Part shown: in pieces, positions 7,201 to 43,085 of the stretch
Layout of the letters: the number at the start of each line of letters is the position of its first letter
How positions within the stretch are numbered: position 1 is the stretch's first letter
Translations under genes and position numbers: made by a program
Notes under the pieces: model-generated
Databases searched by the model: none
The model's input: only the letters and a program-made list of their open reading frames with translations
What the model was told of the DNA's origin: nothing
NCBI GenBank assembly: GCA_973895155.1
Contig: OZ316897.1
Location: 21,799,455-21,863,454 of the forward strand
Length of the DNA: 64,000 bases
Source: Marsupella aquatica
Lineage: Eukaryota; Plantae; Marchantiophyta
Direction: 5' to 3'

Positions 7201-9543
7201 GGACACCGTCATCTGCTGCCACCACAATAACCGCAATGTCTGTGACACGAGTTCCTCGTGCACGCATTGCACTAAATGCCTGTCAAGTCGATTGCCCACC
7301 CAATATTATAATCACTTCAGTTGTTTCTTGGTTGGACGTGAAAAATATCCATTTTCATAATTTAAAATAGTGGCCGGGAAGGGAAAACTCCAATCATTCA
7401 AAGCTTGCAGTAGTACTACTGTAGCCAACCTGGTGTCCAGGAGTGTCGAGGAAAACACAGTCTTCCTGTTCACCTCCCACTTGCACAAGCACACGGTAAG
7501 CACCAATTCCTTGTGTGATGCCACCAGCCTCACCAGCAGCAACCTGCAGAAGATTCAAAAACTCTTCGTTTCACAATCTCAACCGAGGCAAACTGGCTGG
7601 TCCGTTAAACACAAATCCCCATTCCTCAACAGTACCTTTCTTGGGAAGTTTTAATACCATTCGAAATTTAGATGAATTATTTAAAGCAATTATTTTGGAG
7701 AATCAATTCATTTTCAATATCCACCAGTTGTTCAATCTGTCACAGTAACACTGATTATCAAAGTGGTCAGGTTGACCTGAACAAGTATAAATCGCTAAGG
7801 GTGAAGGGTTATTAACGATTCTCACCTTTGATTTTCTGATGTAGTCCAGTAGAGACGTCTGCAGAGATATATACAAAAGGAATCAGTCAATAAGGTAATT
7901 CAACAGTGAAGAAGGAATTCTGTCAGGAACGGAGATGGAGCTTTCTCGCAAAAGGAAAGCCTGGCGTAACCCATGCCACACTCTGACCCAAATTCCGTGA
8001 CCAAATGCATAAGTTGTTCCTCACACTGAACTGAGAGACTCCATCCAGTAAAATATACAGCTAAGAAAAGGCTTTATCAGAAAAGCGCCCAGCGCGACTG
8101 CGAAGCTTTGGTAGAAGAAAAACTCTGGAAATTATCCTCTCTGCGTCCTTGCATTATTGTTCCCCTCATAGAAACACCAGAGAGAATTACCTTGCCATGA
8201 TCGACGTGTCCCATAATGGTAACTACAGGGGGACGGACTTCAAGGTATTCCAGATCCTGCTCATCCAGAAATTCGGTGGTCTTCTTCGCCATTTCCTCAA
8301 CCTTGATAGTTCCAGCTTCCACGACCTCCACTTCGAATTCATGGCATACCAGACGAACAGTCTCTTCATCCAAGGTTTGATTCACCATAGTGGCAATTCC
8401 TTTCAAAAACAGAGTCTTGACCACCTCGCTATCATTTACCGCCAGTTTAGCTGCCAAATCGGCCACTGACATTCCTTCCTTGCCAACCTCGAGAATGTCA
8501 ACTTTGACAGGGGCTGCTGCTCTGGCTGCCTCAGCCTTCACCGCCTTCCTGCTTGCCTTGGTTTGCTTCCTGGCTCTTGGCCGGGCCAAACCCTTTCCAA
8601 CAATAGGGCTGTCTAGATCCACCGTGGCATCAGCATCATCTTTCTCCCTCGCAGCCACTCTTCGCCTAGCTCCGTCCGAAACACTGGACGCTTGCTTCTT
8701 TCTCCAGTCCTCTTTACCTTTGACAGGGGCATTCTTTGTGAATTTCGGTGCAGCAGCTGCAGGGGAATTTGTAGCGGGAGCTCCTCCGCCAGCGGATGCC
8801 CCTGGGCGTCTAGGGGAAGCGCCCACATCTCTCAAAATGGGCCCCTTCCGAGCTGGTTTCTCGCCATCCACTGCATTTCCGGAATCCGCAGGCTTAGGTC
8901 GGGTTGTTGTCACCGGACTCCTGGCCTGGGCTCTAAAGCTGGCATCCGGCCTGAATGATTGAACAAAATCTCTGGCTCCAGCTTCTCGTTTCACCTCTGC
9001 TCCTGCATCCCTCTGAGCTTGTGTGGGTCCTCCACTGTTGGGATTCGAGGGCGTCCACTGGGTTGCGTTGCTCCTCGGTGGTGGCCTTGATTGTGCAGAT
9101 GGTCTACTAGGCGGTGGAGCAAAGGAGGGTTTTCTTGGTGGTGCTGGTGCTGGAGCCATTGGAGCTCTCACCGGTGGTTTTGGTGCTTCTTTCAACACTC
9201 CTTCTTCAGCTTCTTCAGCTGATGCAGAGAATGAAGTCGGAGCTGGTGTTTCCTGTTCCTTTACTGGAGATGGTGACGGAGAGGGAGACGCTCCAGCTGA
9301 CTCTTTCGGTTTTTCCATATCCTCGACATTCTTGAGAATGTGTCCCAAGCTCTGCACCGAGCTGGCCTCAGCAGCAGCCACGCCATCGCCAGGTCTGTAA
9401 GCGACTTTCAGCGAGCTCCGCACCTTCGTTCTGCCAACTCTCCTGATCGAGATTCGCATCCTAGAATCGAGATACACATTCGAGACCGCCATAAACCGAA
9501 TCCTGGAATCAAAACAGACATTGGAGACCGCCATGGAAGTCAT
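4245..9543 (-). CDS. infB: Chloroplast translation initiation factor IF2 (nuclear-encoded, 12 exons, ~963 aa)
   Basis: Exons 9543-8191, 7858-7826, 7543-7430, 7279-7130, 6952-6854, 6655-6593, 6271-6116, 6003-5938, 5619-5383, 5238-4963, 4763-4575, 4400-4245; all introns GT-AG and phase 0. Motifs [20 protein letters not shown] (G1), [19 protein letters not shown] (G3), AINK-D (G4), GLECG near the C-terminus; Ser/Arg-rich transit-peptide-like N-terminus. Start Met is uncertain (9543 or 9534). Confidence 0.95.
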
Positions 9544-13260: not shown

Positions 13261-13803
13261 TCACAACTGCTTGTAAGAAGCACCATGAGATTCGAGCCAA
13301 TTTGCTTTCGCTGCATCGGGGATGGTCTGCATCTGCGAGTACATCTCAGCTGCTTCGGAGGTTGTGAGAATCCAGTTACCCTTCGCGCCATCGTCAGTGT
13401 AGACTACACCAGTAGGCTTCATCTGGCTGTCACATGTCTGGGAATCAGTCAGGAGCGATCGGCGTCCAGCTTGGTACCAGAAAGCTCCGGTGAACTGGCC
13501 TCCAACTAAGCAGAAGTTGCCTTTGCCCGAGCCGACCTGCGTGGTACAGCCTCCATTTCTGTAAAATTTGCTGACCTGAGAACTTCCAGATGTGCTTGTG
13601 ACCAGCACAGAGCCGCCGTCTTTTGCGCTCACTACACAGCAAATGTTGGATTTGATGCCATTGAATGAGTAGCCGCTCCCTTTGCACTGCGAGGTGCTTT
13701 CGTAGATTATGATATCAACTGCTCCAACGAGGCTTGAGAACTGCAGCAACAGAAGCACTGGCAGCACCGCATACACGACGCCCATTGCGCTGATCTTCGC
13801 CAT
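13261..13803 (-). CDS. Small secreted cysteine-containing protein (~180 aa)
   Basis: Open ORF; hydrophobic signal peptide MAKISAMGVVYAVLPVLLLLQFSSLVGA; Cys pattern C-x14-CC-x-C-x-C; RRSLL processing-like motif; splice acceptor (ttgcag) just upstream of ATG suggests a 5' UTR intron. Confidence 0.75.
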   Translation of the reverse strand: MAKISAMGVVYAVLPVLLLLQFSSLVGAVDIIIYESTSQCKGSGYSFNGIKSNICCVVSAKDGGSVLVTSTSGSSQVSKFYRNGGCTTQVGSGKGNFCLVGGQFTGAFWYQAGRRSLLTDSQTCDSQMKPTGVVYTDDGAKGNWILTTSEAAEMYSQMQTIPDAAKANWLESHGASYKQL

Positions 13804-14534
13804 CGTGGAAAGGTTGAAAAGGTCCTGCAAAGTAAGTCAGACCCATCCCTCAGTTAGTCCCAGCAAAGCAATCGCATGGGCTGCAAGCGCTTGCTATATT
13901 ATCAGAATGATATGCAATCAGATGTTGTGCGTATTGCGAAAAACAACGAAACAACGAAACAGCTTTGTCCATCAAACAAGTTTGGCATCTATGAAAGCTT
14001 GGCACAAAAATCGAATCCAGTCGACTGCCTATGTTCTAACGCTGCTGAGAGTGAAAGCAATGGCATCATTCAAACATAAAAGTTGCGCCATCGCGCGTCT
14101 TCACAGAACGTTTGTCTCACGAGGCTAAGTTACGGATATATTACTCAGCTCAGGTAAGGTACTAGAATTGAGCCGCCACGAGTTCAGCTGCGACTTCACT
14201 TGTAAAATCGAATGGCAGTGGTGAGAATGAGAATGAGTTTACGGTGGTTTGCATGGCTTAAATACTACTCTGGTGTAGACCTAGCTTTCTTCCAAGTCTG
14301 GACTGTGGAGTCGTGCCAAGTCTGTGTAGCAGGGCTTATCTTCCCAACGGAGGACAATTGACTGCAATTCATTTCTTTCGAGCTAGTATCACTTTCAACA
14401 GACGTGCTGCAGTTTGGGTACGGTCATTTTCTGTGGGAAAGTTCACTCTTACTGCAGACGAGAGGTGTCACTACGATGGGCTCAATCACAATTGAATAGA
14501 AATCACTCAGTGAGGCACAGTAGTACGAGGCATA

Positions 14535-14566
14535 TACGGAATACCAAATGTTGCACATTGTTTTTC
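14535..14566 (+). repeat. Left TIR of IS3EU-like element
   Basis: TACGGAATACCAAATGTTGCACATTGTTTTTC, preceded by GGCATA. Confidence 0.9.
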
Positions 14567-17500
14567 TTAGTAAAACACTCATATTTTACAAAATATATAA
14601 GATAAAGGGTATTGTATTTTATTTAAATTGTGAAATCATACAAGTTCCAAGAAAAAAAATCACTCTCCTTTGTTAAAAAAGGGGAGATATTAGGGACTAT
14701 GAATAATAGGTTGGACAAAACAATTTCATACTGTTCAATGGTGGGTAATAAAAGTTTGTTTTTTTAGATTTAGGCTTGAAAATTTTGTAAAAATGTTGGA
14801 CATATTATGTTTTGGAAGTGCGGATCACTTTTATGGAAGAAGTGAAGATGGCAAGGAAACATCAAGGAGAATTATAGGGTGACTTTTAATTCAAAACAAA
14901 AGGTTTAAAAGAGTCACATCAAAAACAAATTAACAATATACAATGATGTATGAATATTTTACTTTCCAACAAAAAATTTGCACAAAAAAATATTTATGCA
15001 AAAGAAACCTCAAAAATAAGAGTATGTGACCGCAAAACCACAAATAAATTAAAGTTTTGACCAGTGCACCAAATAAAAAATTGCACCGCCATACAAAAAA
15101 AAGTTTGCACACAAAACTCGCTCTAAAAAAAAACCCGCCCCATCAAAAAAGATGTGCATGTGAACCTATAAATTTTGGGATGATAATTTTACTCAATGTG
15201 TTTTATTTCTACGCGCACAAACACAAACCACCCACCCTAACATTCAGGGACCAATGGGGAGATAGCCAATGATTACATTTAACTATGGTTACATGACATG
15301 GATTTCACTAGACATTGTATTGTATAGTATTGTATACATTGTACCTCTTTGCTATAATGGAATCAATGCATTATTTCTCCAACATGTTGCAGTTATTTGG
15401 TGAAAGAATACCAAGCCTACTTACTTGCTTGGCCAATTATTTGTGTTACTTAGGCTTATTGGCATGAATATTGCATATTACCAGTGAAGAAATAAGTGAT
15501 AGAGGTTACAATTGCTTACTGACATGAGAGGGACGAATTGGATGTAGAGACTACCAATGGAGAGACTTCACCAAAATGAACCAGTGATGAAGTATCGATC
15601 TCAAGATTTTGCTAGGAAGTAGACTCTATAGTTGCCAATTTGAGAGGTCAGAGCCCATTTGGGGAGTTGCTTAATGTAAAGCCCCCACAAATACGTGAGA
15701 ATAAAAAATTATTCTATAAACAAAATGTATCAATTAAATTAAAAACCATTTGCATCTTTTTTATAAAAATTTGAAAAAAAATGAGTACCTTGCTAATTCA
15801 TAATTTTGTCAAAATTAGATTATTAAATATCTTTGGTACAGTCAAGTCTTTGGTTATGATTAGTAGCCCAACTATATTTAAAAGATTAGCCTTCTCTTTT
15901 TGCATCACATTCTAATAATCTAACTTGCCAATGATTCCCTAGGGTAGAGTCCAAAACATCTTTGAATCTACTCCTACTTGGCCTAGCTACTAATGTTCAT
16001 ATATAGAAGACGAGGAACAATGTGAGTGAAGGTGATATTAATTGGCAGATGAAAGTAGTAGTGGATTTCATTCATCTGCACCTAGTACTGAGAGGTGCCC
16101 CCCCCCTCCTGGTTTTCCCAATCCTACTATGGTACCAATTAAGAGAGGATAAACTTGAAACTGAAAGACATGAAGAACTGAATTTGCAGACCTTAAGTGT
16201 TGATCAAACCCGTTCTACAATCTACCATTGCAATAAGGAAATGAAGATGAGAAGATTCAACTCATACCCGCTCATATGTCCTTGGAGCTCTTAAGTATCC
16301 AGAATGGGACGAATTCTTAATTGGCTCACAAGAATAACCAATAAACTATGGTGAGCATGTTGTAGATTGATTAACCATAATTTCTTACATTATGCACTTG
16401 AGGGCATTACTTCTCACTTTGGAGGATCTCAAAGCCATTTTTGCAACTATCATAGCTCTTGAGCCATAGCAACATCACTACCCTTTAACCCTACTTTCAT
16501 TGACACAAGAACCCATACTTAGAGGGTCTTTTGCTATAATTGATGATGAATTCTTATTTGTTGCACCTATGATCTATATATATAAAATGACAAAGTTCAG
16601 AAGCAATCAAGGCCTAACTTGAGTATGAAATCTCCTACTTGATTTGGATGCTGCTGTTGGAACGTAGACTAATTTACTTTCCTCAGTGCAAACTATAACT
16701 CTAGTTCATATTCCTTTGTTAGATGTGTCTTCTAAGAAGAAAGATGCAAATAGGATTGCTACAAAGATACAAGAGGAAATAATGGAGGTTATGGGGGGGG
16801 GGGGGACCGCAAACCTAGTCAAACCATTTTCAGAAGAGCAATTGTTTCTATCTTCCATTGCAGTATGCTACAATTTGGTAGACATTGTAAATAAAGTTGT
16901 ACAAATTAAAGGCTTAATCTACTATGGTTGCCTCATCATCTCACCTAGCTATTGCATGACTGTGGGCATGCATATTGTTAAGAACTCCCATCGTACGAAT
17001 CATATAAATACCTTGTAACGAAAATGTGAGCCATTTTATTATGATTTACCTTCTTAGTGTTTGGTTCACAGCCTTTTCAAAAATTTCTAGGTTGCTCCAC
17101 CTTTTTTGAGGGGCAGCTCCTTCGTTTCACTTTCATAAACCATTCATGTTGTAAATTAAAATTGTATCCTATATAGCCCTTGTTTTCTGCATATATTAGA
17201 CAGCATGGCTGTAGTACCAGCTAAAAATTAATAATAAAGGTGTTTCATGCAACGGTGCTCCATATGGAAAACTTGGGGTCCAACAACTTAGCACGTAAGG
17301 ATGAATAGTTTAATTTGCAAAATAACCTCAAATAATCGATGTTTACACTAGGTCTTTTTGATACACAAATTAAAAGAGCCCATTGTCCACCCTCCTCTGC
17401 TCTACTCTACATTTAATTTTTTGGCCAAATCCAAAGCCTTGTTGCTCGGATGATTCTCTTGCGACTACTGTATGTTGAAGGTGAGCCCCAACAAGCTCTT

Positions 17501-17824
17501 CTTGATAATATCCTCTTGTCCAGCTAAGATCATCAGTACATTGTCAAATAACAAAAATAATTGCAATAGTCCTGATCACTATATAGAGAACTAACTTTTA
17601 ACGTCTGATAGCAAGTTGGTCCACCTCCATGCCAAGGTGCTAACTAAGCCATGCAGAGGTGGCACTCCACAACTATTGCTCACAAAAAGGCCTCTACTTA
17701 GATAAATTTAGTGACTCTTGCATTTGGAGGGTTAAGATATGCATACTCAATGATTTGAGAAAGAGCGTTACCAAAATGCAGATTCAGGGCAACATTGGAT
17801 TTGAAAATGCAGATTCAGGGCAAC

Positions 17825-18489
17825 ATTGGATTTGAGGGACGGGAGGATTAATTTCATGAAAATTTAAGACAAACAAATGAGGCACAATGTATGGTCTAAA
17901 ATAATATTTTGGCAGTTGTGGGCAGTATGAACTATCAGTGGGCGCGCAGGCGGTGTGTGATAAAGTGATTATTCCTAGAAGGGGTTTAAGTATGAAATTG
18001 AGAAATTTCCAAACTTTTCAAACCTTACATAGTGCATTATGGGGATGGAAAGATCTTTGAGTAACGTCAAGATGGCAAAGACATTGTGGCCGACCCAAAT
18101 ATTAGTGACGTCCCTCTAGTAGGGAGGTCCAGCCTATGACCAAATAATGGCTTTTGCTTAAAGCAATATTGGATTTGAGGGACAAGAGTATTTCATGCAA
18201 ATTTAAGACAAACAAACGAGGCAGAGTGTATGGTCTAAAATAATATTTTGGCAGTTTGGGGCATTGTGAACTATCAACTATTGCTAGGGGCAGGAGGTGT
18301 GTGATATAGTGGTTATTCCTAGAAGGGTTATAAAGTATTAAATTGAGAAATTTTTAAACTTTTCAAACCTTACATGGTGTTTAATGAGGACGGCAATATC
18401 TTTGGGTAAAGTCAAGATGACAAAGACATTGTGGTCGGCCCAAATATTAGTTATGTTCCTCGAGTAGGGAGGTCCAGCCTATGACCAAA
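17825..18489. repeat. Diverged tandem duplication (~343-bp period, 2 copies)
   Basis: attggatttgagggac...agggaggtccagcctatgaccaaa at ~17825-18144 and ~18168-18489; a short exact direct repeat (aaaatgcagattcagggcaacattggatttg x2) precedes it. Confidence 0.85.
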
Positions 18490-19331
18490 GAACGGAATTA
18501 ATTCGCTTAAACCAAGGTGGCCAGGACGGCAATAAGGTGAAGTCCCCTTTGTAAAGACATCTGAGTGGGACGTCCACCATTTCTCAGCATAAACGGCCAA
18601 GAGAGACCGGGAGGAGCCAAAAGAGGCTTGGATTTTACCTTGCACATATGTAAGCTTCCACAATCCTAGTGGATCAATTGTTTGAGTTTTTCTTGTCTAC
18701 ATTGTATTAAGGCCAAAGTAACCTTGGAAGATTACATGAATAGATACAAAAGACTTTTGTTATAGTTTCATTTATCATAGTGAATTGTTGTCCATCCACA
18801 AAGAAGGTTGTCAGTTTGTCACCTTGATCAGCTCGCCCAACCAAAGGCCCAATGTGTAGGCACTGTAACCACATCAGCTAACAACTATCATGGCTAGCAG
18901 AAGCCACAACTCAAGAAGTCGACATTACTGATTAACAAAAATAAATGAAGAATGAATTTGAGTAGTGCAGATCTATCAGACGAGGATCATCTTGGTAGTA
19001 AGCATGTGTGTTTGTGAGTGGCAAACTAAATGTGGACTTGGTCGTATTCTAACTGTTTCACTACTAACTTGTGCTTGTCTTTGAAACCCACTTTGTTTAC
19101 CCACTTTGGAATGCATTTATATGCATGCCCATTGCATTATTTACCTTGTGTTAATATTTCAAAACATATAGCTTAGGTGGCCCCAATTCATGCACATTTT
19201 TCCCTGAAAAGTGCCTATCTATGGCAAATTACTAGTAAGATGTGCCCTGGTCAGTCAAAACTGAATCAACTGCACAACTATTTGGGAGATCATATATAAT
19301 ATAATAAACAAAGTAGCTGACCGGGTTACAA

Positions 19332-19627
19332 CTCGGGGGTCTCACTACATGGGGACCTCCCCATCACCTGCGACGTTTTTAGGCCTTGGACCCCCTAAAA
19401 TGTAAGAAAAAAATTTATTTTTTAACCCCTATAAAGTTAGAATATTCTTGGAATATTCCAAAAATTGGATTAAAAAGGCCCTAATGTTCTTATAAGTCTC
19501 AAAATTGAATTAAAAAGACTCTATTGTTCTTCTACAAAAATTCTTAAGTCTTCCCTTACAACCAATAAAATGACCCTATCCTTCGTCGCACGTGATATGC
19601 CATTTTTGTGGAAGTGAAACCCCCGAG
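19332..19627. mobile_element. MITE (296 bp), copy 1
   Basis: TIRs CTCGGGGGT(C/T)TCACT; 8-bp TSD GGTTACAA; homologous in inverted orientation to 38344-38640. Confidence 0.9.
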
Positions 19628-20118
19628 GGTTACAAAAATTACAAATGACTAAACATAGCCTAGCTTCAAGTTCATGTCAATTACATAGGTCAGATTCATT
19701 TCTTCTCTGGCTATGGAAAATTCAAAGACATTCTGATTAATGAACTAATTTAGTAACCTAGGTGTCCCTTGTTCATGACGCCCACCTTGGAAAGAAGGCG
19801 TGAGTCTCTCAAGTACTAACATGTCTCGTCACAAAATTTACCTGCAAAATAGAAAGTAAAGTAATTGTTAAACAAACAATAAGAGTTCAATCAAAGGCAA
19901 GACAAACAAAGAGTCTAATCCATAGCGAATTAACAGACACATGCAATATACATTAAACCCAAACTAATAAAGATAATACAACTAGCAATTATATATACTT
20001 TAAGATTAAAATAAAATGTAATACGTCATATTTTATAAGTTCCCTATAAAAACTTACTTCATGTGTGGCTAGTTCTATTTCTGATAGTCTGGAGTGTTTG
20101 GTCCAAGGTATTCAAAGC

Positions 20119-21914
20119 TCATGACCTTTTTTCTGGCAAATCATTAAAATTTAGTTGTTGATGTACATAGGCTGTCAACCCCATAGTGGCACGAGAACTA
20201 CTTTCACATTCAAGAGAAAGCAGCAAATGCATTCTGAACTTGTCCTCCTCCGATAAGACTCCAATCTGATTAGTTTCATATGCAAAATCACGGATATCAC
20301 GAAGACTCTGCACCCAAAAAAAAGAATTTGGTGAATTGGAAATTAATGAAAAGAATATGCAACCAAATAAAATACATTTTGCTTCACTTACCTCATCGTC
20401 TAAATCTTTAACACCATGTTCAAAGTTTCCATGATCATCATTATGATTCCAATAATCAGTGCCAATAGTCTCGATAATATCATCTGCATCTTGATATCAA
20501 CTTGACCTTCTTCAGGATATGGTGGAGGTAAAACTATTTTAGATTCTTTGTCTCTTGCTTGAAAAGCAAGTTGAGGAATGTGTGATGGCCTGTTCACACC
20601 TCGTTCTCGCACCACTCTCACTGTATGGGCATTCCATGTTAGAATGATATCATTTACAGCATTCTGAATGAATGGAAGAAGTACAATAACAATGGAGTAT
20701 CTATGCAAGGGATTATCCATTTGCAAAAATCCTTCCTCGTATGATAGAGTATGAAATAAGTCCTTATAATGACCCAATCCTTGTTTCTTCAAGAATCCCC
20801 AAAATGCTTCGATCCTCTGTAAAAATCACAATGATTGTAAAAAATTAGTATGTTCCTTGAAATCATTTTTCCTTTTATAAGTTAAGGCCACAAAAACCCC
20901 GTGGCAGAGGGGAAACAACCATGCCATCAAAAATCCAGCTAAACAACATGACCCTTGGGAGGGCGGGCAGAAAGCATTAACAACGTACACAAACAACAAA
21001 TAGGCATCGCGGCCAATGCAACATTGGGCCCCCATAAGTCCCATAGGCAAAAAATTAGTATGTTAGTAAACATATCAAGCAAATAATTTTGATAACATAT
21101 AGTTGAGTTTAAGTACTACCTGATTATGAACTAAAGAACCTTTGCAAAAACAATGAGTATTTGGTCTTGCCCTTTCAAGATTATTTTGGACCAAAATATG
21201 CTCAATCGCATAATCATAACGAATTAATAAAGGATGACCAAATCTTTGAACCGCATTTTTATACCCTTCATAAATAGTCCGGGCTTTCTTATTTAATGCA
21301 ACATGCATATACATAACATAATGTGTAGCTCCATCGATAGCTCCATGAATTCTAATTCCATAATTTGGTAATTTGTCATATGCTGCACAAGAAATTAAAC
21401 AAAATTAGTACATCATTTCATGATCATGAACAAACTATCTGAATCATATATAGTCAAAAAATGATTGATTCAATCTAAATAAAAGGATATAAATACTTGA
21501 ATTTTACTCACAATCCATATGCCAAATATGCATTGCTTCGGTGACATCATAAACCCGACGTATTAGACATCCGCGTGCTCTTGATGCAAGTAATCCTGGA
21601 ACTAAAACATCCAAGGCATCACGTACAAGCGTTCTTGGAACTTTGTATCCAGCTCTTTGTAATCGTGCCTTTATCATTCTTATTCCTCAATCTTTTGCAT
21701 ATCCATATATGAGAATAAACTCTAGAATCAATTGCCGAACCTCCTCAAGCGTATATGTTGGATACATTTTCTCTCCATTATTAAATACTTTCAACCATCG
21801 CCATAAGGTAATTCGATCTATTCCAAGTGCTAACGCACATTCCTTCATAGTATAACCGATGTGAAGTGCTGCCATCACATCTTCACACATTGAATTGATG
21901 TTTGTTGCATCCAT
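20119..21914 (-). pseudogene. IS3EU-type (integrase-core-like) DDE transposase, 4 exons, disrupted
   Basis: Exons ~21914-21512, 21382-21120, 20816-20392, ~20309-20119 with GT-AG introns. N-terminal HTH (KECALALGIDRITLWRW), GIRMIKARL, RRVYDVTEAMHIWHMD-SYDKL, IHGAIDG, GHPLLIRYD, GSLVHNQ-RIEAFW, WNAH. In-frame TGA at 21687-21689 and a frameshift late in exon 3. Confidence 0.85.
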
Positions 21915-22287
21915 ATATTTCCCAAATATTCTCCAAAACTCCAATGAACTAATACTTTATTTTGCCAGTGTATAATTCCACCTTTTTTAGAACAATTAGA
22001 GAACTTTGTCAGAAAAACAAAGGTCACAAGACAAAAAAACAAGGCTAGTTAGAAAATGTACACTAAGTTGTCATTGCACATACAATAAAGTAGGAATATT
22101 TTTAGCAAAAGATACCCTGGATTTACAAAGGGATTTGAAAACTATGGAAGGCTCTTTGGTCTATTCAATGCCCCAGTTTAAGCTCTTGAGAGCATCTATT
22201 ACTAAAATAAGCAAAGATACAAATGGACAAACAAAATCAATATATAACATTAAAAATTCTGCTCATTATCATGACTATGAATCATGT

Positions 22288-23642
22288 TTATGCATTTTCA
22301 TTTGAAAATGTGTAGGCACCACCTAGCTTCTCATTAATTGCAATCCCAACTACGTATACCGGTTCTATAGGGGAACATCTGTACGAGGTGGCGTGCATAT
22401 CTTTTCCACGAAGAAAGAAAATATCCCCATCTAATATTGGAATCTTTATTCCATACTCAATAACAACTAGATGTCCACCTCATTCCTCCATTGAGGGATT
22501 TGATGCCATGAACATAGTGTATTTACTACAATCATGATCATTATGAACTATATTACAGTAGTTCTTTGTAAAAAATAGAGGATATGCTGGTATAGCATGT
22601 TTCACAACGTTGGGCTTGGAAAAGTATTGAAGTAATTCTTTGCTTAGATCCATGAAAGGATCTTTGCAATCCAAAAATTCCCTCACCGGCAAAAAATAAT
22701 CACAAAATAATAGGAAAATAATTTCAAATAAGATTCGATGGGAGCATTGCTCATGAATTAACTCCAATTGCAATGCGCTAATCGGAGTTGTATCAGCAAT
22801 CTTTAACTTATCCCTGTAATAACTCACAAAATATGCTCCTTTTCATTCTCTCCAATTCACAAGTGGCCCCACAACTCGCATTGTTTCAATCAATGTTGAT
22901 CTCGAATTAGCTCTACGAACAGTCCATTTGTGATTGTAGGCATCAATTATTGAATGCCTTAGAAATGGTCGATCGCCCTCTGGAACAACTCCTTTCATTC
23001 GTCCCCCTATTATTTCATTGGTAGACCTATCTTTCCAGATTTCAATAGATGACAAGGGATCCATACATAAAAGTTACTTGGTATCACCTTCCATACAATA
23101 TGTCGTTATGTTTTGGGTGGGCTAAATCCTCTCTCAATCAAGAAAGCATTTTTATGTTTCACAAGAAACTTTGGGCTTCTCTTCGCAAATGTCTTTACTG
23201 GGATTTTATGTTCTTCAAATTTTTTAAAATGATCTGCCTTCCGATTTATATATAAAATTGGATCTTTACAAAACTTTCGGACCCTGGTGGCAATCTCATT
23301 CCCAAGCGAAGATAGATTGTACCGGAAAGTGATCAAGTGGACTATTGTTTTCCACTGATTGGCAGTAAAATACTCAGACCAACGACCGGTTTTCCCCAAG
23401 AAGTGAAAACCAGAATAAAATTTTGATAACTCTCCCTTCATTTTCCCACCGGAAAAGATGTGCACACCATATTCAAAGAGTAACCAATCACCGAGTAACC
23501 ATTTAAGTAAAAACTGAATATGTAATTTTCCCAACTGAGATGTAAGAGTGATGAGCTCACAAAAATAAATAGCAGCCTTAGGAAGAGGCTGGATTTTGGT
23601 GATGTCTGTTGGATTTTGATGATCATTAAATTGAATCTGCAC
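22288..23642 (-). pseudogene. TET/JBP-like 2OG-Fe(II) dioxygenase with unknown N-terminal region, disrupted
   Basis: Reading through TGA at 22843-22845 and 22480-22482 gives FFTKNYCNIVHNDHD (HxD, 22545-22537)...GGHLVVIEYGIKIPILDGDIFFLRGKDMHAT (distal His 22395-22393)...VVGIAIN, a double-stranded beta-helix signature. The upstream ORF 23106..23642 joins via one frameshift and a TAA. Confidence 0.65.
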
Positions 23643-24557
23643 AAATAAGATTATTTATCAACATAAAGTGATAAAGAACTTAGTAATTTAGTATAGTTTA
23701 CTAGTTAATCAATATTTTGATTGACATCTTGGACCATAGTGATTTCAAATCGAATTCGAAGCATATCAACGCTAGGCACTGAGGATTCCAACATAAATAA
23801 TCTGAAAGTTTCACCCCCCCCGGAATATCAATTCCTCTTGATTTTACTCACAAAACTATGGTCTCCAAAATATAGCAATATAATGATGATAATTAATATC
23901 TTATAATAGATTGTATACTATTGGCAACAAGGTAAGATTCTTACCATTTCATCAGATTTGGAAGAAGTTTGCCTTTTCTTTCCCCTTCTTTCATTTACTT
24001 TTGCATCATTGTTACTCAATTTTAAGCCTTTCATTGAATCTACAATGAATGACAATCTATCATGAATATCAACTTTTTCATATAATTGTTCAAACAAAAA
24101 ATAACACTAACCATTCACATATTCAATCACAGGTACTTATTTGACACATAGAATTACTTTCTATAGCCTAATCTTTAGGTATGTCTATTTCTTGACATAA
24201 TAATTTTGGATATTGTTTGTATTAATGTATTCCAAACTCCATCAACAAATATAAAATTGAAGTATGCAAATTGCATGCATGCAACAATAGATGAGGCAAA
24301 AAGAGAAATGGTCACCTCGTCACCACAAATTAGCCAGTTTTCCAAATCCAAAGTTGTCTTCAAAATTGATATCTCTGCACTTTCCAAAAAATATATCAAG
24401 CTTAAGGTCCCATTGGCCATAATACAAAATCTAATGGATCCAAGTTACTATGAGTCCTCCAAAATATTCTCAATAAAATTAAATTTTTTTCACTCTTTTG
24501 TCCTTTCCTAATTTGATGGCCTATGGTGTTTTAGTCAAAGAGTCTATTGGATAAACT

Positions 24558-25243
24558 TTAGAGCCAAGAAATATGATCATGAACAGGGGTCTGCAAAGTG
24601 GGATCAATGGGATGGAGATGACAATAGAAGAACCATCTGTCAACTTCATGGGCACTATGATCATATATCTTTCGATCGCAAGCATATCCTTCTGCCTGAC
24701 ATTCCTTCAAACAGTAAAAATACCACATTGTGGGGCATCGAATGCAATGGACAATATCTGTCCAATTGAGGTCATCCTGTTCACCACATGCCTTGCATGT
24801 ATGTAACGGGCAGATAGGGGTGTGTGATGGCAGACACGCACCGCAAAAAGACCTTACACAAAATCTATCTGAACATTTTTGAACATATTGTGGAGAGTCA
24901 AGAGAACCCTCCAAATTCCCCAACTTTCCACATTGGGCACACTTTGCATGTTTATGTATGCAGTCTTTGCACTTCCACTTCCCATGTTGGCCAGAAGGTG
25001 GGGAAGACCGACCCCTAGACAATTATTCTCTGCTGCATGCAGAGATTGTGCATTGAGATGAAAGTGCCTCAAGCATGGTCCATCACAAATGACTAACTCT
25101 CCACCATCATCACAAATGGCACAACAATGGGCTACTTTTTGGTAGATTTGTTCGCGTGAAAACTTCAAAACATGTGGTCCAAACACAGTTGAATGTCTCA
25201 CCTCGCCCTTATCTTTTCTACATGGTTGTTTAGGACGAGCCAT
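24558..25243 (-). pseudogene. EDM2-like composite PHD-finger region, one frameshift
   Basis: CAICDDGGELVICDGPCLRHFH...KWKCKDCIHKHAKCAQCGKLG...CPLHTCKAC...CIRCPTMW...FYCHLHPIDPTLQTPVHDHI matches the EDM2 PHD block as I recall it, including the YCxxHxIDxxLxTPVxDH tail; overlapping ORFs 24854..25243 and 24558..25022 are joined by a 1-nt frameshift near 25000. Confidence 0.8.
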
Positions 25244-25389
25244 GCCTGCACATCCATAAACAAAATTAATTGTTAGAAGTCATAAAAAGTTGGCATAAAA
25301 TCGGAACTAACAAATCATCAAAAATACACAATAATACTACTATTCAATGAGCTATTCAAGATTCATGTACAAATTAGTTGCATACTTCA

Positions 25390-27985
25390 ATCTACATAAC
25401 AAGTCCAAGTACATGTTGTTCTCTTAGCCATGCAAGTCCCTCACAAGATGCAGGTATGATAAGAGTCGTGGCTGCCAAATGTCCCTTCTTTGAACTACTC
25501 ATAAACGAAATTAATATTCACTAAGGAAAGCAGGGTTTGAGAGATGGAATCAGAGATGGCAAAATTTCTAGAGCCACATTCCCTTACCAGAATGGGACCA
25601 AACTTTGCCTGCACATACCCCAGTAGTAGACAACGTGCTGGTGAAGTAAGAGCACCAACAAAGCTTTGGTTGAAAAATGAAAAATCAGAGCCTTTGTGGG
25701 GTACTCCTGCCTCCTAAGCAACCTTTGACTTCTCTCCCTTGCCACTATTAAAACCAGCTTCGACTTGCTAGATCTGCAACCAAGTCCAAGTGCATGTTTT
25801 CCTCTTAGCCAGGTCCCTAACAAGATGGTGGTTCATAAGAGTCGTAGCTGTCAAATGTCCCTACTTTGAAGTACACAGAAACCTATCGTTCGTTAAGGGA
25901 AGGAACATTTAAGAGATGGAAGCAGGCAGCGTGGAATTTTGGGAGCCACATTCATTGCATGGAATGGCACCAAACTTGGCTAGCACGTACCTCAAGTAGT
26001 AGACAATGTCCTGGCAAAGTTACAGCATGAATAAAGCTTTCAATGAGAAATGAAAAATCGGATGCTCCGAGGCGGTCCTCCTGCCTCCCAAGCCACCTTT
26101 GAATCCTCTCCCTTGCCACTACTTTGATCAGCTCGTACTTGCTAGACCTGCAAACAAGTCCAACTACATTGTGTTCTCTCAGCCACTTCCCTAACAAGAT
26201 GATAGTATCACAAGAGTCGTAGCTGTTGAACATCACTGCTTTGAAGTACTTAGAAATCAATCGTTCAGTAAGGGAAGCAATGTTGAAGAGATGGAAGCAG
26301 GGAGCGTGGAATTTCTGGAGCCACATTCCCAAGGCCGAAGGCAACCAAACTTGGCCAGCACGTACCTCAAGTAGTAGACAATGTCCTGGCAAAGTTACAG
26401 TATGAACGGAGATTTCAGTGAAGAATGAAAAATCGGATGCTCCAAGGTGGTCACCCTGCCTCCCAAGCCACCTTCGAATCCTCTGCTTTGCCACTATTTC
26501 AATCAGCTCGTACTTGCTAGACCTACAAACAAGTCCAACTACATTGTGTTCTCTCAGCCATGCCCCCTACAAGATGGTGGTGTCACAGGAGTTGTAGTTG
26601 TTGAACGTTGAACGTCACTGCTTTGAAGTACTCAAAAACGAATCATTCAGTAAGGGAAGCAATGTTTAAGAGATGGAAGCAGGGAGCGTGGAATTTCTGG
26701 AGCCACATTCCCAAGGCCGAATGGCACCAAACTCGGCCAGCACGTACCTCAAGTAGTAGACAATGTCCTGACAAAGTTACAGCATGAACGGAGATTTCAG
26801 TGAGAAATGAAAAATCGGATGCTCCGAGGAGGTCTTCCTGCCTCCCAAGCCGCCTTCGAATCGTCTCGCTTGCCACTACTTTGATCAGCTCGTACTTGCT
26901 AGACCTGCAAACAAGTCCAACTACATTGTGTTCTCTCAGCCACGGCCTTAACAAGATGATGGTATCACAAGAGTCGTAGCTGTTGAACATCACTGCTTTG
27001 AAGTACTCAGAAATCAATCGTTCAATAAGGGAAGCAATGTTGAAGAGATGGAAGCAGGGAGCGTGGAATTTCTGGAGCCACATTTCCAAGGCGGAATGGC
27101 ACCAAACTCGGCCAGCACGTACCTCAAGTAGTAGACAATGTCCTGACAAAGTTACAGCATGAACGGAGATTTCAGTGAGAAATGAAAAATCGGATGCTCC
27201 GAGGCGGTCCTCCTGCCTCCCAAGCCGCCTTCGAATCGTCTCCCTTGCCACTACTTTGATCAGCTCGTACTTGCTAGACCTGCAAACAAGTCCAACTATA
27301 TTGTGTTGTCTCAGCCACGTCCCCTACAAGATGATGGTGTCACAGGAGTCGTAGCTGTTGAACATCACTACCTTGAAGTACTCAGAAACCAATCGTTCAC
27401 TAAGGGAAGCAACGTTTAAGAGATGGAAGTAGGGAGTGTGGAATTTCTGGAGCCACATTCCCAACGCGGAATGACACCAAACTCGGCCAGCACGTACCTC
27501 AAGTAGTAGAAAATGTCCTGGCAAGGTACAGCATGAACGAAGATTTCAGTGAGGAATGAAAAATCGGATGCTCCGAGGCGGTCCTCCTGCCTCCCAAGCC
27601 ACCTTCGACTCCTCTCCCTTGCTACTATCTCAATTAGCTCGTACTTGCTAGACCTACAAACAAGTCCAACTACATTCTGTTCTCTCAGCCACGTGCCTAA
27701 CAAGATGGTGATATCACAGGAGTCGTAGCTGTTGAACGTCACTGCTTTTAAGTACTCTGAAACCAATGGTTCCGTAAAGGAAGCAATGATGAAGAGATGG
27801 AACGAGGGAGCGTGGAATTTCTGGAGCCACATTCCCTAGAGGGAATGGGACCAAACTTGGCCAGCACGTACCTCAAGTAGTAGACAATGTCCTGGCAAAG
27901 TTACAGCATGAACGGAGATTTCAGTGAGAAATGAAAAATTGGATGCTCCGAGACGGTCCTCCTGCCTCCTAACCAACTTCGACTT
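25390..27985. repeat. Tandem array, ~375-bp unit, ~7 copies
   Basis: Anchor gaatttctggagccacatt at ~25562, 25934, 26309, 26691, 27066, 27441, 27815 (spacings 372, 375, 382, 375, 375, 374). Confidence 0.95.
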
Positions 27986-28191
27986 CTGTTGCTTGCCAAG
28001 TCTATTTCGACTTCTCTCTTGCAAGGATTCAAAGGAGTGTTTGACCAAGTTTGAGGGTGTGTCATCAGGTTCAATAACTTTATTGTGTGACAAAGTGTTG
28101 GCCGTTGATTTTGTTGGCGGCTCATCTCCCTCCTCAGGTTGGGTTGAAATGAATTGAACTCCTGATACATACGCTTGAAAACCCTAGAAAT

Positions 28192-29288
28192 AAAAACACA
28201 TATAAGAAATCTCAATGGGTATGGCTACCTAGTTTGGGAGCCTACTGAAGTTACTTAATTTGTCCTATTGAGATTTTGTGTCTGTGTTTTTGTTTTGAAT
28301 TATTTTGTAAGATAACCATAAGGAACATAACCATGAAAGGCTTATTTTACAAGGTTCCTTAGTTTTGGTTACCTTATGTTAATTAAAGAACATCACCATC
28401 AAACCCAAAACCAACCACCCTACATTAGTGGATATCAATGTCATAAACCCGGAGGACGTTGCAAGAATTTTGTTAGTTAATTAAGTTCATATGAAACCAA
28501 ATTAAATTGGTCCTGAAGACCTGGACCCACATTTTGGTTATTGGTGAGAGTAAGGACTACCATAATATATTGTATATAGAAAGGGCCAAACAAAGTACAA
28601 TGAAGAGCAAACAAAATTTGTCCAACGAGTACAAAGGCAGAAGAAGCAGGTGCAACTTTGATTTAATTTTATTTAATAATGAGAGTGGTTATGCTTTTGT
28701 TTGATTACACTTTTCTTCTATGTGAAAGTGATGTGTCCTTTGTGACTGGCCCTTAGAGGAAAGTAAATGGGAAGTCCAATATGGAAGTAAGAACCCAGTA
28801 TGTTCTTGGTGGATGATCAACAATCCTGGGTCACGTCAATCCTATGGTGGAAGAGGTCCAATGATGACTACAATAATTTCCCACTGGGATAGAAATTTCC
28901 ACTTGTACCCAATCTTTATCCTCTGGTTTTAATTGAGTTGTAGGGTGAGTAGGGGACTGAAGATGCATATGGTTGGTACAATATGCTTGCAGTGTTATTT
29001 TCAGATTAGAAAAGGGAACAAATATAATTGACTTGTTGAGGAAGCACGGGTGGGCAAAGTTTTTATCAAATTTAAGTCTTTGAAAGTATTTAACTAACAT
29101 TGGGGCACATTTGATTGATTATATTCTGAACTTTCTTGATATCTCAAGGAAATCATTTTTAGAACATAATTTAATATCTAGAATCAAATCTGAATAAAAT
29201 AGTTTAACTAGTTTAATGAAAAGGTTCAATCACATCAAAAAAAATATTGTCCTTCTTAAATTTTTCCAGGGAACCAAAAGAAACTTGT
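28192..29288 (+). repeat. ~1.1-kb direct repeat, copy A
   Basis: aaaaacacatat...ggaaccaaaagaaacttgt shared with 30955-32043; begins with a ~110-nt hairpin. Confidence 0.85.
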
Positions 29289-29735: not shown

Positions 29736-30954
29736 CTAATGGCCGGCCATTTGAGTCGGACATTTGATGACCTGGGTTATGATGTAGATGATCTATATAT
29801 ATGATTTGCTGAGTGTTGGTGATCTCACTGGACGGGGTATGGAGGATTAGGGTTTAATTTTGGACAAAAAACATCTTACTTTACATTTGTGTTCTCATGT
29901 CATGAGAAACTACTGAGTTTTGCCCTCAGTAAATACTTGCTATGGGTTGTTGGAATGGTTTGTCAGACTATGTGTTGAGTATGTGGAGAACTTCCGCACT
30001 GTTACTTAATACACATATGTTGAGTTTGGTATATGAATATTTTGCACATTTTGTAAGTTGGATGTTGGATGTATTTTTTTGCAATGGAGGGTATCCTATG
30101 CAATGAATGCAAGAATGGTCTTCCCCACCACCACTCCAACTGGGTTCGATGTTTTTAAGAATTCTTGTCCAACAGGTTCCAATTACATGAACATGACCTG
30201 GACACATTACATTAGAAGACCTTTAGGAATACCCATAGAACCATCTATATCAAAATAATGCCTTTGTAGCCTCTTAAACCTCCAACCTGCTTTTGCCTCA
30301 TACTCGATCATGTAAAGCTCCATCAAATTCATCCCAAGTAAACTTTCTGCATCTCTTTATGTCATCCATAGACCCATTCTGTAGTTCCTCGCGTATTTCT
30401 GTTGAATCTCTTTAGTGTCAGCAGAGCTTCATCCATTAGAGACCCAAGGTTCTTAAGCTCTATCCAGGCTTCCACTGATTTTACTTTAACTCCAAAATAT
30501 TTTATTTAGTAGCCTGGCCCAAAACTTCAATAATAACTAATGTATTTGCACATGATGGCTCGGTGGTAGTCCCATTTCAATTTCAAAATGTAGCGCGTAG
30601 ATAAATGGAAATGGATTGGACTAACCCAAATAAATGAGATGAAGTTTAGCTACATGTGACTACTAATCTTCAAGCACTCAACAGTCAATTGTAAGTTTAC
30701 AAAACTGGTCCTCTTTGCCACAAATGGGTCTCTTGAGAATATACAGCGTAGGGTATGTATAATGCATGATAATCAATTTAGTATAACTTGAATATAAGGA
30801 TAAATCAACACATACTAACAAATGAGCGGCAAGATTGAAAAATAAATTATTTGAAGGGGGTTCTTGAAAAGTTAATGAAAATATTAAGAGGGGGAAGGTT
30901 AATACGAAAGTCCAAAAATACAAAGGATACATCTTGTCTAAACTAATTCAAAAC

Positions 30955-32043
30955 AAAAACACATATGAGAAATCTCAATGGGTATGCTTACCTTGTTTTG
31001 GAGCCTACTCAAGTTACTTAATTTGCCTTATTGAGATTTTTTATATGTGTTTTTGGTTTGACTTATTTTATAAGATAACCATATGGAACATAACCATGAA
31101 AGGCTTCTTTTACAAGGTTTCCTATGGTTACCTTATGTTCAGTAAAGAACATAACCATCAAACCCAAACCCAACCACCCGACAATTAGTGGATATCAACG
31201 TCATAAACCCAGAGGACGTTGCAAAATTTTTGTGACAAGTTAACATTAAAATTATATTACATAGAAAGGGCCAAACAAAGTACCACAAAGAGCAAACAAA
31301 ATTTGTCCAGATGGTACAAAGGCAAAATAAGCCTATGCAACATTGAATTATTTTGTAATATATAAATGAGTGTGGTTTTGTTGTTGTTTGATTACACTTT
31401 CCTTTTATGTGAAAGTGATGAGTCCTTAGTGACTGGCCTTTAGAGAAAAACTAACAGGGAAGTTCAATATGGAAGTAAGAACCCAGTTGTTCATGGCGGG
31501 TGATCAACAATGCTGGGTCGCTTGGCGGATGATCAACAATGTTGGGTCGCTACAATCCTATGGTGAAACCCAAATTCCATTCACCACTGATGACTACAAT
31601 AATTTCCATTCACCACTCACGACTGTAATAATTTTGTTTTGCATAGAAATTTCCATGGTACCCAATCTTTATCCTCTGGTTTTAATTTGAGTTGTAGGGT
31701 GAGTAGGGGGCTGAAAATGCATATGGTTGGCACAATATAGTTGCAGTGTTTTTCTCGGATTAGAAAAGGGAACAAATATAATTGACTTGTTGAGGAAGCA
31801 CGGGTGGGCAAAGTTTTTATCAAATTTAAGTTTTTGAAAGTATTTAACTATTATTGGGGCACATTTGATTGATTACATTCTGAACTTTCTTGATATCTCA
31901 AGGAAATCATTTTTAGAACATAATTTAATATCTAGAATCAAATCTGAATAGAATAGTTTAAATATTTTAATAAAAAGGTTCAATCACATCAAAAAAAGTT
32001 CTTGTCCTTCTGAAAATTTTCCAGGGAACCAAAAGAAACTTGT
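30955..32043 (+). repeat. ~1.1-kb direct repeat, copy B
   Basis: Diverged copy of 28192-29288 with small indels. Confidence 0.85.
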
Positions 32044-38343: not shown

Positions 38344-38640
38344 CTCGGGGGTTTCACTTCCACAAAAATGGCATATCACGTGCGACGAAGTATAGGGTCA
38401 TTTTATTGGTTCGAAGGGAAGACTTAAGAATTTTCTGAGAAGAACAATAGGGTCTTTTAAATCCAATTTTGGGACTTATAAGAACGTTAGGGTCTTTATA
38501 ACCAAAATTTGAGAATATTCTGAGAATATTCCAACTTTATAGGGGTCAAAAAATTAAAAATTTTTCTTACATTTTAGGGGGTCCGAGGCCTAAAAACGTC
38601 GCAGGTGATGGGGAGACATCCATACAATGAGACCCCCGAG
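38344..38640. mobile_element. MITE (297 bp), copy 2
   Basis: Same TIRs CTCGGGGG...CCCCCGAG; own 8-bp TSD ACAGTACT; inverted relative to copy 1. Confidence 0.9.
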
Positions 38641-39752
38641 ACAGTACTTGCCAGGGACTACCTTTCCAATCCAAACAGTATCACTTTTGTGCATACTTTA
38701 TCTTCTTTGCTTCTTTGCTTCTATTGAAGTACTTGCGGGCCCGCTTGCGGAACTACTTGTTGATCAAGTTTGTCAACATCTTTCGAGCAATCTTTGAATT
38801 CACTCTGTCTATTGGATTTAGCAAGTGAACACAAGCTACAATTCTATGCAAAATATGGATGAGCCAGCAGAGTCTAGCTATGTACAGCAAAGGAACCTCG
38901 TGCCAGGATATGGTAAAACTCTGAGGACCCCTCCATCTCAAGTATCGGGTGCAGAGCATTCTCATTTGCAAGCCAATGATTCATTATCACCTCCAATCCT
39001 TCCATTTCCATTCTCATATCATCAGTCTGGATACCGGTTTGATGGAGAATCTAGAGGTGGGTTGAATTCACGAAGATGACCACCAATGGTTGCAAGACCT
39101 GCGCCGGTGATCAGGAATAGATCACGTTATGACAAAGAGGTGGAGCGTGCTATACATGTCCCTCTCTTGATCTACGAGGCAGAACAAGTTGACACTGGCT
39201 GTGACACGGATAACATGTCACTTAACGGAACCCAGGTCGTAGATTAGGCCTTATACGGGCATTAGGACCGTAGCCATAGCGTAGAATAGCACGTGTAGCA
39301 GTCTGTTGCCATTATGAATAGATTAGGAGTAGGTTAAAATGACCGAATAATTACGAGTTTAGGAAGAGGATTATTATGCACGACCGAGGTACGGTGGCGG
39401 CAGCGGAGTAAAAATCAGTTAGAGGAATCATGCTTGGACCGAGGCGCCGACTTCAGCTCGTTATCAATGACCAAACGGCCTGGCCTTCTCACGCTCGGGC
39501 TCATCCTGGCACCTCCATAAGAGAGGAGCTGATGGTGCTGCGGGCCATTTGCTCATGTCTACCTTTTTTTGAATTTGCGGACGTTGCCACCCACTCGCCC
39601 TTCTGATCGAATCAAGTCAACCTTTACAAGGAGATTATCGAGGGAGAAGAGCGGAATGTGGCGAGATTTAGTCAGGACGAGTGAGGCCTCCACGAGAAAG
39701 AGGACCAGCCGAGTGGGAACGCGGACTCAACGAACCGGACTATGAGGTTAGT

Positions 39753-42067: not shown

Positions 42068-42739
42068 GGGGTGGTTAGCGAAGGGTGGAAGCAGGCGCCG
42101 TGCGAGGCAGTTAAGACAACGACATCTTTTGGTTAGGCGTAACGACAGAATGACTGTCATTAGGCACCGATTAGCGGCAGTAAGAAGAATTAGGGCCGGA
42201 TCAGTTAGGATCAGCCAACGTAGGATGGAGTCCATCAACGGACTAGAGTTTGTCAGTAGGCTTGGCCGCTGCCATCCCGGTTGGCACCTTGTCATCGACG
42301 GTCAACCAGTCAGTGCGGCGCGGCCAGTAGTCAGTAGGTAGTTAGTCAGTAGGTAGTATCCCGGAAGGCAGTATCCTCCGGCTCTCCTCCGCGATTGTAG
42401 TATGTGACGCCAATGACATGGTCCTTATTTTGTAATCTGATTAAGTAGGTTGCTGTATGCAAGGAGTAGCTATTGATATTACATAACAATTAGCAAGATG
42501 GCAAGAATAAGGGCAATCATGGCGTTAAGAGTAGGGAAATAAAAACTATGTCGCGGGTGGTCGACGACCATATCTCTTTCAATATGTCACCAAATCCGGA
42601 TCTGTAAAGAGCATTGGAAAGATCTGGTCAAGGCAAGTAAAATCGATATAAAACACTCGGGAAACGGAGGTGTATTAAGAGAAATACGGCCTGATTAGTG
42701 TGACGGGTTAACTTATGGCCGGAATTAGCGGATTCGGCT

Positions 42740-43085
42740 TCAGTTTCGGGTTAACCCAAGCTCGACCACGGCTTAGCTTATGTGAGCACGGCTTCAGCTT
42801 AGCTCAGGTAAGCACGACTTCAGCTTAGCTCAGGTGAGCACGGCTTCAGTTTAGCTAAGGTAAGCACGGCTTCAACTTAGCTTAGGTCAGCACAGCTTCA
42901 GCTTAGGCTTAACCTAGGTTCGGATTAGATTGAACTCGGGTTAGCCTAAACTCGGGCTCAGCTTAGGGTAGGTTAGCGGATAGCGGGTAGCGGCCTAACC
43001 CGAGACCACGGGTTAGCTCTACTCGGGTTAGATAGGATAGCTAGGTTAGCCAAACTCGGGTTAGCTATGTAACTCGGGTTAGCGC
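42740..43085. repeat. Minisatellites inside the LTR-like unit
   Basis: 26-bp unit gcacggcttcagcttagctcaggt(a/g)a x ~5 and dispersed actcgggttag motifs. Confidence 0.85.

Follow-up and report, generated by a model that had tools for sequence, protein, structure and literature searches.

The broken gene of a predicted TET/JBP-family oxygenase, likely cargo of an IS3EU/GingerRoot transposon in a liverwort

Genomic Organisation of the Locus

The window (the whole stretch of DNA that was analysed, 64,000 nucleotides) carries on its minus strand a broken gene of a predicted TET/JBP-like oxygenase, which sits inside a 34.5-kb transposon of the IS3EU/GingerRoot type (14535–49083). A check of open reading frames and translations placed the part of the gene noticed in the preliminary description at 23064–22288 of the minus strand, where reading through the two TGA stops that lie in frame at codons 74 and 195 (22845–22843 and 22482–22480) yields 258 codons, including those for His174 (at 22545), Asp176 (22539) and the distal His224 (22395). 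A tblastn search with an intact relative of 479 aa, P0024, aligned residues 223–479 of the latter to 23064–22291 (61%, E 2e-103) and residues 34–235 to 23618–23025 in a different frame (42% over 202 aa, E 2e-49). Because P0024 aligns further upstream in the other frame, the gene starts upstream of the ATG at 23064; by this alignment the full gene comprises about 480 codons, from about 23640 to 22288, and the originally described span is its C-terminal half alone (22288–23064, minus strand), which contains the predicted catalytic β-helix core. The N-terminal half (23025–23636, minus strand), which the preliminary description had missed, follows a predicted splice acceptor (23637) and contains a TAA codon (23108–23106) and a frameshift near 23064, so that the gene has four breaks; both TGA codons and the quoted motifs are all present, but on the minus strand, and the TAA and the frameshift had escaped notice. 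Upstream, a predicted GT-AG intron (23944–23637) preserves the frame to a putative further exon (23945–24080, minus strand), which contains a basic RRGKKR stretch, a possible nuclear signal. The window's copy of the gene is probably no longer functional, and intact sibling copies may exist.

The gene is not recognisable from the read-through product by itself. The His-x-Asp pair and the distal His do lie at the spacing of a double-stranded β-helix (DSBH), as had been pointed out, but the combination of H-x-D with a His 45–53 residues further on, when stop codons are permitted, is found 18 times across the six frames of the window, which is not above the chance level (mean 28, maximum 40 in 20 base shuffles). 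The read-through protein matched no TET or 2OG family in Pfam and nothing relevant among PDB sequences, and its model, folded without an alignment, was unusable (pLDDT 36). The reality of the gene rests on its homologues.

The transposon is delimited by a left terminal inverted repeat starting with TACGG (14535–14587, plus strand) and a right one ending with CCGTA (49031–49083, plus strand), preceded and followed, respectively, by a perfect 6-bp target duplication, GGCATA (14529–14534 and 49084–49089). The 53-nt arms, longer than the 30 bp expected of IS3EU/GingerRoot inverted repeats, are 81% complementary, including 28 of the 30 terminal bases. TAYGG..CCRTA ends, reported for the TET-carrying fungal families, and a 6-bp duplication are described as IS3EU signatures (PMC12730594; PMC10045372). 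There are 86 TAYGG and 89 CCRTA sites in the window, and only the pair 14535/49083 combines a 6-bp direct flank with matching arms; one other pair with a 6-bp flank is complementary at 17 of 30 positions. Inverted repeats of about 300 bp at 19332 and 38640 were considered as ends of the element and rejected, being separate miniature elements, each with its own 8-bp duplication, with an empty site in X1 and X3 of the public sequencing runs.

The transposase gene (20120–21956, minus strand) encodes a helix-turn-helix followed by an integrase core, the latter matching PF24764 (rva_4; 52.4 and 36.7 bits, cut-off 26), a family that we take to be the link to IS3EU, and the former matching HTH_23 below the cut-off (E 6e-4). 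The D, D and E residues were located in the motifs WHMD, RYDY and RIEAF. Three GT-AG introns are predicted (21511–21383, 21119–20817 and 20391–20308), and this gene is broken as well, by an in-frame TGA (21689–21687) and a likely frameshift near 20480. By its ends, the 6-bp duplication and the DDE transposase, the element agrees with the IS3EU/GingerRoot group. Some 330 bp separate the TET-like gene from the transposase, upstream of which it lies and whose orientation it shares, and the GC contents of the two are similar (0.365 v 0.356). Upstream of the TET-like gene, a second cargo gene (24558–25279, minus strand), frameshifted near 24990, encodes an NSD-type PHD zinc-finger module, with the profiles PF23011 (26.6 bits, cut-off 27) and PF23004 (20.6 bits, cut-off 27) falling short of their thresholds; the module is presumably similar to the triple PHD of EDM2 from plants. 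The bins over the PHD module show elevated summed depth in the public runs, which indicates related copies elsewhere. No Pfam match to an alpha-kinase was found in 100 short frames or the long ORFs of the element, although a decayed gene could escape such a search, and no second full element with both the transposase and the TET-like gene was seen. The non-coding DNA of the element is poor in CpG (observed/expected 0.32–0.40, versus 0.66 in its left-hand flank), which is what a long history of methylation would lead one to expect.

The element has accumulated other repeats. A nested miniature element of about 296 bp (19332–19627), with its own 8-bp target duplication, is very high-copy and is not an end of the TET-carrying element; its summed depth is 44,000–199,000 in X1–X3, compared with 50–1,000 nearby, and it is missing from this site in X1 and X3. 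A second copy (38344–38640) lies in the opposite orientation with an 8-bp duplication of its own; the ends of this miniature inverted-repeat element are CTCGGGGG..CCCCCGAG. Also located within the transposon are a tandem array of a 375-nt unit (25398–27982; 6.9 copies, 86% matches) and a nested GC-rich insertion of 8.3 kb (39200–47494) with inverted arms of about 2 kb that are 92–96% alike. The 375-nt unit is divisible by three and gives long repeated minus-strand frames, for which no Pfam profile exceeds its cut-off; the GC-rich insertion has TGT..ACA ends and no evident target duplication, and its arms contain frames of 327–416 codons, again with no Pfam match above cut-off. Direct repeats (28188–29226 and 30951–31980, about 2.7 kb apart, 82–94% alike) and a 345-nt doublet (17820–18489) are present in the element too.

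Outside the transposon, an exon of the plastid translation initiation factor IF-2 (8182–9543, minus strand) serves as a marker of the host. It is nearest to Calypogeia fissa (79% over 470 columns) and is 56–58% identical to Marchantia and Riccia, and on this sequence the host is a leafy liverwort, which sets aside the flowering-plant frame in which the gene had been placed. About 700 bp from the left end of the element, a single minus-strand frame (13261–13836) encodes a small protein that contains several cysteines and probably a signal peptide; it has no Pfam match. On the other side, the region 51403–57871, bounded by 25-bp inverted repeats, contains a piece of a DDE_1 (pogo/Tc1-like) transposase (54532–55251; 23.2 bits, cut-off 22), a BRCT-domain frame (56242–57072; 32.7 bits) and, nested in it, a smaller element whose 32-bp inverted repeats are perfect (51996–53266).

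Part of the region was found in six public runs, four of which contain at least half of its words, with three organisms and four studies represented; no RNA runs were among the public runs matched. Three runs cover 30/30 bins of the interval 19000–26000 and a fourth covers 19/30, and one of them may be the source of the window. Among the 40 of 594 differences listed, which do not include the sites of the two TGA codons, every contig in the four runs differs from the stop base of the window at 23108, and at 23064 an additional base is found in the main contigs; the two upstream breaks, the TAA and the frameshift, seem to be specific to the window copy. X1, X2 and X3 also contain a second, frameshifted version of the gene region with about 90% similarity. 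Among the contigs listed for three runs, those with the transposase, the TET-like gene and the PHD module had 3.0–4.4 times the median depth of the miniature-repeat contigs, depth being a different quantity from copy number, and this gives a weak hint that the three genes were multiplied together, in a few near-identical copies.

Protein Family and Active Site

A scan of 1.84 billion representative proteins gave 21 matches at E up to 0.001, and a profile search gave nine, four of them new, P0024 among those. P0019, an unrelated repeat protein of 1219 aa, and P0013, apparently frameshifted, were excluded from all alignments, and altogether 23 relatives underpin the case. P0024 has 479 uninterrupted residues and is 61% identical across the whole C-terminal half. 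Function annotation was found for none of the 20 relatives looked up, the dropped P0019 included. The search against the Tet_JBP profiles, proposed in the preliminary description as a check, did not bear out the assignment: besides the absence of a match for the read-through protein, all relatives stayed under the cut-off, with weak sub-cut-off matches to PF20515 or PF12851 in 7 of 21 relatives (best E 3e-4), none in seven further relatives, and no Pfam TET match whatever for P0001 and P0024; the best scores were 20.6 bits versus 34.9 and 19.1 versus 27 for Tet_JBP (PF12851) and 2OG-FeII_Oxy_6 (PF20515). The profile of alignment A1 ranked CMD1 of Chlamydomonas reinhardtii first among PDB sequences (E 0.039); with the cleaner profile A3, CMD1 was absent and the top match was an unrelated β-hydroxylase (E 0.044).

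In the family tree, which has 20 rows and no outgroup and is silent on origin, the window protein clusters with P0024, P0002 and P0003 (96/94) and with P0004 (99/99). The long members P0008, P0011, P0025, P0030 and P0032 (405–457 aa, about 23–30% identity to the window protein) fall into three other clades. Judging from these sequences, the family predates the element in the window and extends beyond it. No related loci were found in viral contigs, metagenome contigs or annotated phages.

The predicted iron ligands are strictly conserved. In alignment A3, His174, Asp176 and Asp178 (codons at 22531–22545, minus strand), the last a predicted base-contacting residue, are invariant in all 21 rows with a letter, the predicted third ligand, His224 (22393–22395, minus strand), in 18/18 rows, and Arg51 is present in 11 of 12 rows; the triad and Asp178 are unchanged even in relatives at 23–26% identity. 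In TET/JBP dioxygenases, an acidic or Asn residue shortly after HxD contacts the cytosine N4; in profile A1, Asp178 aligned to the DTDD stretch of CMD1, one residue nearer to HxD than CMD1 Asp350. The last strand, which in TET/JBP dioxygenases carries an Arg for the distal carboxylate of 2-oxoglutarate and a base-stacking Phe/Tyr, is different. TET2 (R1896/Y1902/H1904), NgTET1 (R289/F295/H297) and CMD1 (R410/F416/R418) are described as sharing an Arg-x5-Phe/Tyr-x-His/Arg arrangement there (PMC7854593), which in CcTET corresponds to R385/F391/R393, and the R385A substitution is reported to abolish activity (PMC11040006). With the register set by sequence, of the 17 rows of A3 that extend to this strand, none shows Arg or Lys anywhere from 234 to 241, and none has an aromatic residue at position 242, where Ala, Val or Thr is found in 17/17; Asn244 is present in 15/17 rows and Tyr237 in 12/17, and Arg or Lys occurs five residues past the distal His in 13/17. 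The caveat of the preliminary description that the canonical 2OG-binding Arg was not obvious was well founded, and in the alignment its absence appears as a trait of the family and not as decay. Because the last-strand Arg and the aromatic residue are missing family-wide, the enzyme probably deviates from the textbook TET reaction in its co-substrate or its product. Ascorbate-using TET homologues of the CMD1 type are characterised by a Trp358-like block of the 2-oxoglutarate pocket and by the formation of 5gmC. CMD1 is described as an active enzyme with ascorbate as co-substrate, whose last-strand Arg points off the site and is not used for 2-oxoglutarate (PMC7854593), and the chemistry of the family studied here likely differs, as that of CMD1 does, from that of the solved TETs.

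Structure Prediction

AlphaFold modelling was conducted with the intact relative P0024 (61% identical to the window protein), using an alignment of 24 rows. The model has a mean pLDDT of 62.5 and a pTM of 0.54, with values mostly of 76–92 over residues 381–470, which contain the catalytic strands, and the predicted fold is a double-stranded β-helix. A Foldseek search with this model against the PDB, of the kind suggested in the preliminary description, ranked CcTET (E 1.5e-9), CMD1 (2e-7) and NgTET1 (2e-6) highest, the first non-TET structure following at 3e-5. A VIA-align comparison with 48,161 chains gave TET2 (Z 15.9, rmsd 4.4, 243 aligned), CMD1 (Z 15.5, rmsd 4.9, 253 aligned) and NgTET1 (Z 13.8, rmsd 3.9, 206 aligned), followed at Z 11.4–11.5 by CcTET, ALKBH3, AlkB and a prolyl hydroxylase, and a second run reproduced the order; CcTET, first in Foldseek, is thus level with AlkB in VIA-align (Z 11.5). 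The TM-scores of the matches are 0.25–0.35 by query length. In a library of viral structures, a JBP1/TET domain of a phage was the best named match (E 3e-9). The lists of PDB matches contained no structure of JBP1 or of a phage TET, an absence that is uninformative. In the Atlas, a value of 0.93 was obtained for fungal clusters in which 13% of members have Tet_JBP or 15% have PF20515, the recognition value (1867) being below the 2300 mark and the three best clusters having no family.

The outcome that would have counted against the original proposal, with dioxygenases acting on substrates other than nucleic acids leading the structural matches or with no DSBH predicted, was not what the P0024 model gave: a DSBH is predicted, and TET/JBP-family structures lead, ahead of AlkB and the prolyl hydroxylases, which upholds the TET/JBP-like identity. 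The protein very probably has the TET/JBP-family fold, as modelled on the intact relative; the predicted fold and the iron triad agree with that family, while the last strand and the Pfam scores do not, and we refer to the protein as TET/JBP-like and not as a canonical member.

Discussion

The arrangement found in the liverwort resembles elements described in fungi. TET-carrying IS3EU elements of rusts and a truffle are reported, some with TET in the orientation of the transposase (PMC12730594), and in the description given there (Kojima 2025) the rust and Tuber elements share with the element studied here the TAYGG..CCRTA ends, the 6-bp duplication and a TET/JBP gene beside the transposase. 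They differ in that the described hosts are fungi only and in that all carry an alpha-kinase gene, which was not found in the liverwort element, where a PHD module is present instead; the liverwort protein is, moreover, under the cut-offs of PF20515 and PF12851, the comparison being with the elements as that paper describes them (PMC12730594). In the green lineage, 10 of the 11 TETs of Chlamydomonas, with CMD1 among the 10, are described as transposon-borne, and TET-carrying transposons as occurring in the integrated giant virus of this alga too (bioRxiv 10.64898/2026.10.09.758095); according to the available text, these genes ride a Helitron and another cut-and-paste element, unlike the IS3EU/GingerRoot carrier found here. 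CMD1 is thus a TET homologue of the green lineage found on DNA transposons, and it was a tied best structural match (Z 15.5–16.2); it has an Asp shortly after HxD, to which the conserved Asp178 may correspond, and, as described, a last-strand Arg that is not used for 2-oxoglutarate (PMC7854593), but the identity is 12–13%, and CMD1 keeps Arg410, Phe416 and Arg418, which are absent from the family studied here. The likeness to TET2, NgTET1 and CcTET lies in the predicted fold and the His-x-Asp...His triad, and from its motif position TET2 Arg1261 may match the conserved N-terminal Arg of the family; the differences are the missing last-strand Arg-x5-Phe/Tyr-x-His/Arg and an extra helical N-terminal part of about 165 residues.

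Among plant elements, GingerRoot of Selaginella lepidophylla is described as having an integrase-like DDE transposase, TA..TA ends, a 6-bp duplication and extra genes, with lengths of 3.9–12.9 kb and inverted repeats of 100–150 bp (PMC6839031), compared with 34.5 kb (nested inserts included) and about 45–55 bp here; the word 'dioxygenase' is absent from the main text of that paper. TET homologues have been stated to be absent from plants (PMC11233409, PMC13638503), and the available text of five other papers (PMC13519894, PMC11065753, PMC3417536, PMC8889193, PMC4738411) contains no report of a land-plant TET. Our literature search, some of whose wording may miss 'TET/JBP', found TET genes reported neither from liverworts nor from other land plants, and an earlier mention in bryophytes is possible. 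Iyer et al. (2014) reportedly mention a transfer of TET/JBP genes to Viridiplantae. What is apparently new here is a transposon-carried TET-like gene in a land plant, such genes being already known in fungi and Chlamydomonas.

The interpretation that we favour, if by a modest measure, is that the locus holds the catalytic half, now broken, of a gene for a predicted TET/JBP-family iron oxygenase, likely carried as cargo by the transposon, whose product would modify DNA bases and so blunt silencing by methylation. Intact copies would encode a nuclear enzyme that binds Fe(II) via His-x-Asp...His, flips a base, 5-methylcytosine being the likeliest, out of double-stranded DNA and oxidises or otherwise modifies it; the modified base would escape maintenance methylation or be repaired away, and the element would stay transcribable. 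The adjacent PHD module, as a putative reader of histone marks, could direct the enzyme to silenced chromatin. Action on nucleic-acid bases seems probable to us, and an anti-silencing role has slightly better than even prospects. VANC proteins are sequence-specific regulators and are not known to have an oxygenase fold. They provide, in the VANDAL (MuDR) transposons of Arabidopsis, a described example of a plant transposon with its own anti-silencing factor (PMC12730594), and for the rust and Tuber elements the anti-silencing role is, in the text available, a proposal, as it is here (PMC12730594).

Several other explanations bear on separate parts of this interpretation. The altered last strand, with the Arg and the aromatic residue absent from 17/17 rows and each replaced by a small residue, namely Val, Ala or Thr, could mean that a TET-derived protein kept its iron site, lost co-substrate binding and became non-catalytic or weakly catalytic, binding or masking methylated DNA or acting as a scaffold with the PHD module, given that these residues are reported to matter in CcTET, CMD1, NgTET1 and TET2 (PMC11040006, PMC7854593). 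We regard this as fairly unlikely: the invariance of His, Asp, Asp and His down to 23–26% identity argues for retained catalysis, CMD1 is described as active though its last-strand Arg faces away from the site (PMC7854593), and the Arg/Lys five residues past the distal His (13/17) and Tyr237 (12/17) could substitute. An iron oxygenase of the same superfamily with a substrate other than DNA bases, such as RNA, a protein (for example, a histone) or a small molecule, would accord with the non-canonical base-recognition residues and with the fact that AlkB and prolyl hydroxylases match the P0024 model too (Z 11–12); TET2, CMD1 and NgTET1 lie 2–4 Z units above them, with 206–253 aligned residues versus about 175, and the transposon context counts against a non-DNA substrate, so that this explanation seems improbable.

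It is also unlikely, in our opinion, that the gene is a passenger, taken passively from the host or another element or inserted later, with no role for the transposon, although 22 of 77 Selaginella GingerRoots are reported to contain host gene fragments (PMC6839031), the liverwort element has at least three nested insertions and its pairing of the two genes was seen once. The whole gene is present and not a fragment, it abuts the transposase with the same orientation and composition, and an annotated plant name, which a conserved host gene would have, was found on 0/20 of the relatives looked up. The precedent in fungi and algae favours selected cargo, and we consider it quite likely that the TET-like gene is true cargo of the element. 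Liverworts host fungi, and among the nearest Atlas clusters those with taxa come mostly from fungi, as they would if fungal or viral DNA had been misjoined into the plant assembly. This is highly improbable: the perfect 6-bp target duplication links the element to a flank with the intron-bearing plastid IF-2 gene, a very high-copy repeat is inserted within the element, the interval 19000–26000 is covered in the public runs (30/30 bins in three, 19/30 in the fourth, one of them possibly the source of the window), and relatives in viral contigs were not found.

Returning to the favoured interpretation of a base-modifying cargo enzyme, a bolder form of it, which we hold to be rather doubtful, would be that land plants have TET-family enzymes in the form of a liverwort transposon-borne lineage that dispenses with the 2-oxoglutarate Arg and the stacking aromatic residue, uses another co-substrate (ascorbate being the obvious candidate), makes an undescribed DNA base and is steered by PHD onto silenced chromatin, keeping the element alive. 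No seed-plant member of the family was identified, and the oxidised cytosines of seed plants are therefore left unexplained by it. The active-site changes found family-wide point to a possibly new chemistry, and the intact relative is a concrete enzyme with which oxidised or novel bases may be sought. The presence of a gene with a predicted TET fold in a liverwort transposon extends the pattern of transposon-carried TETs, known from fungi and algae, to land plants.
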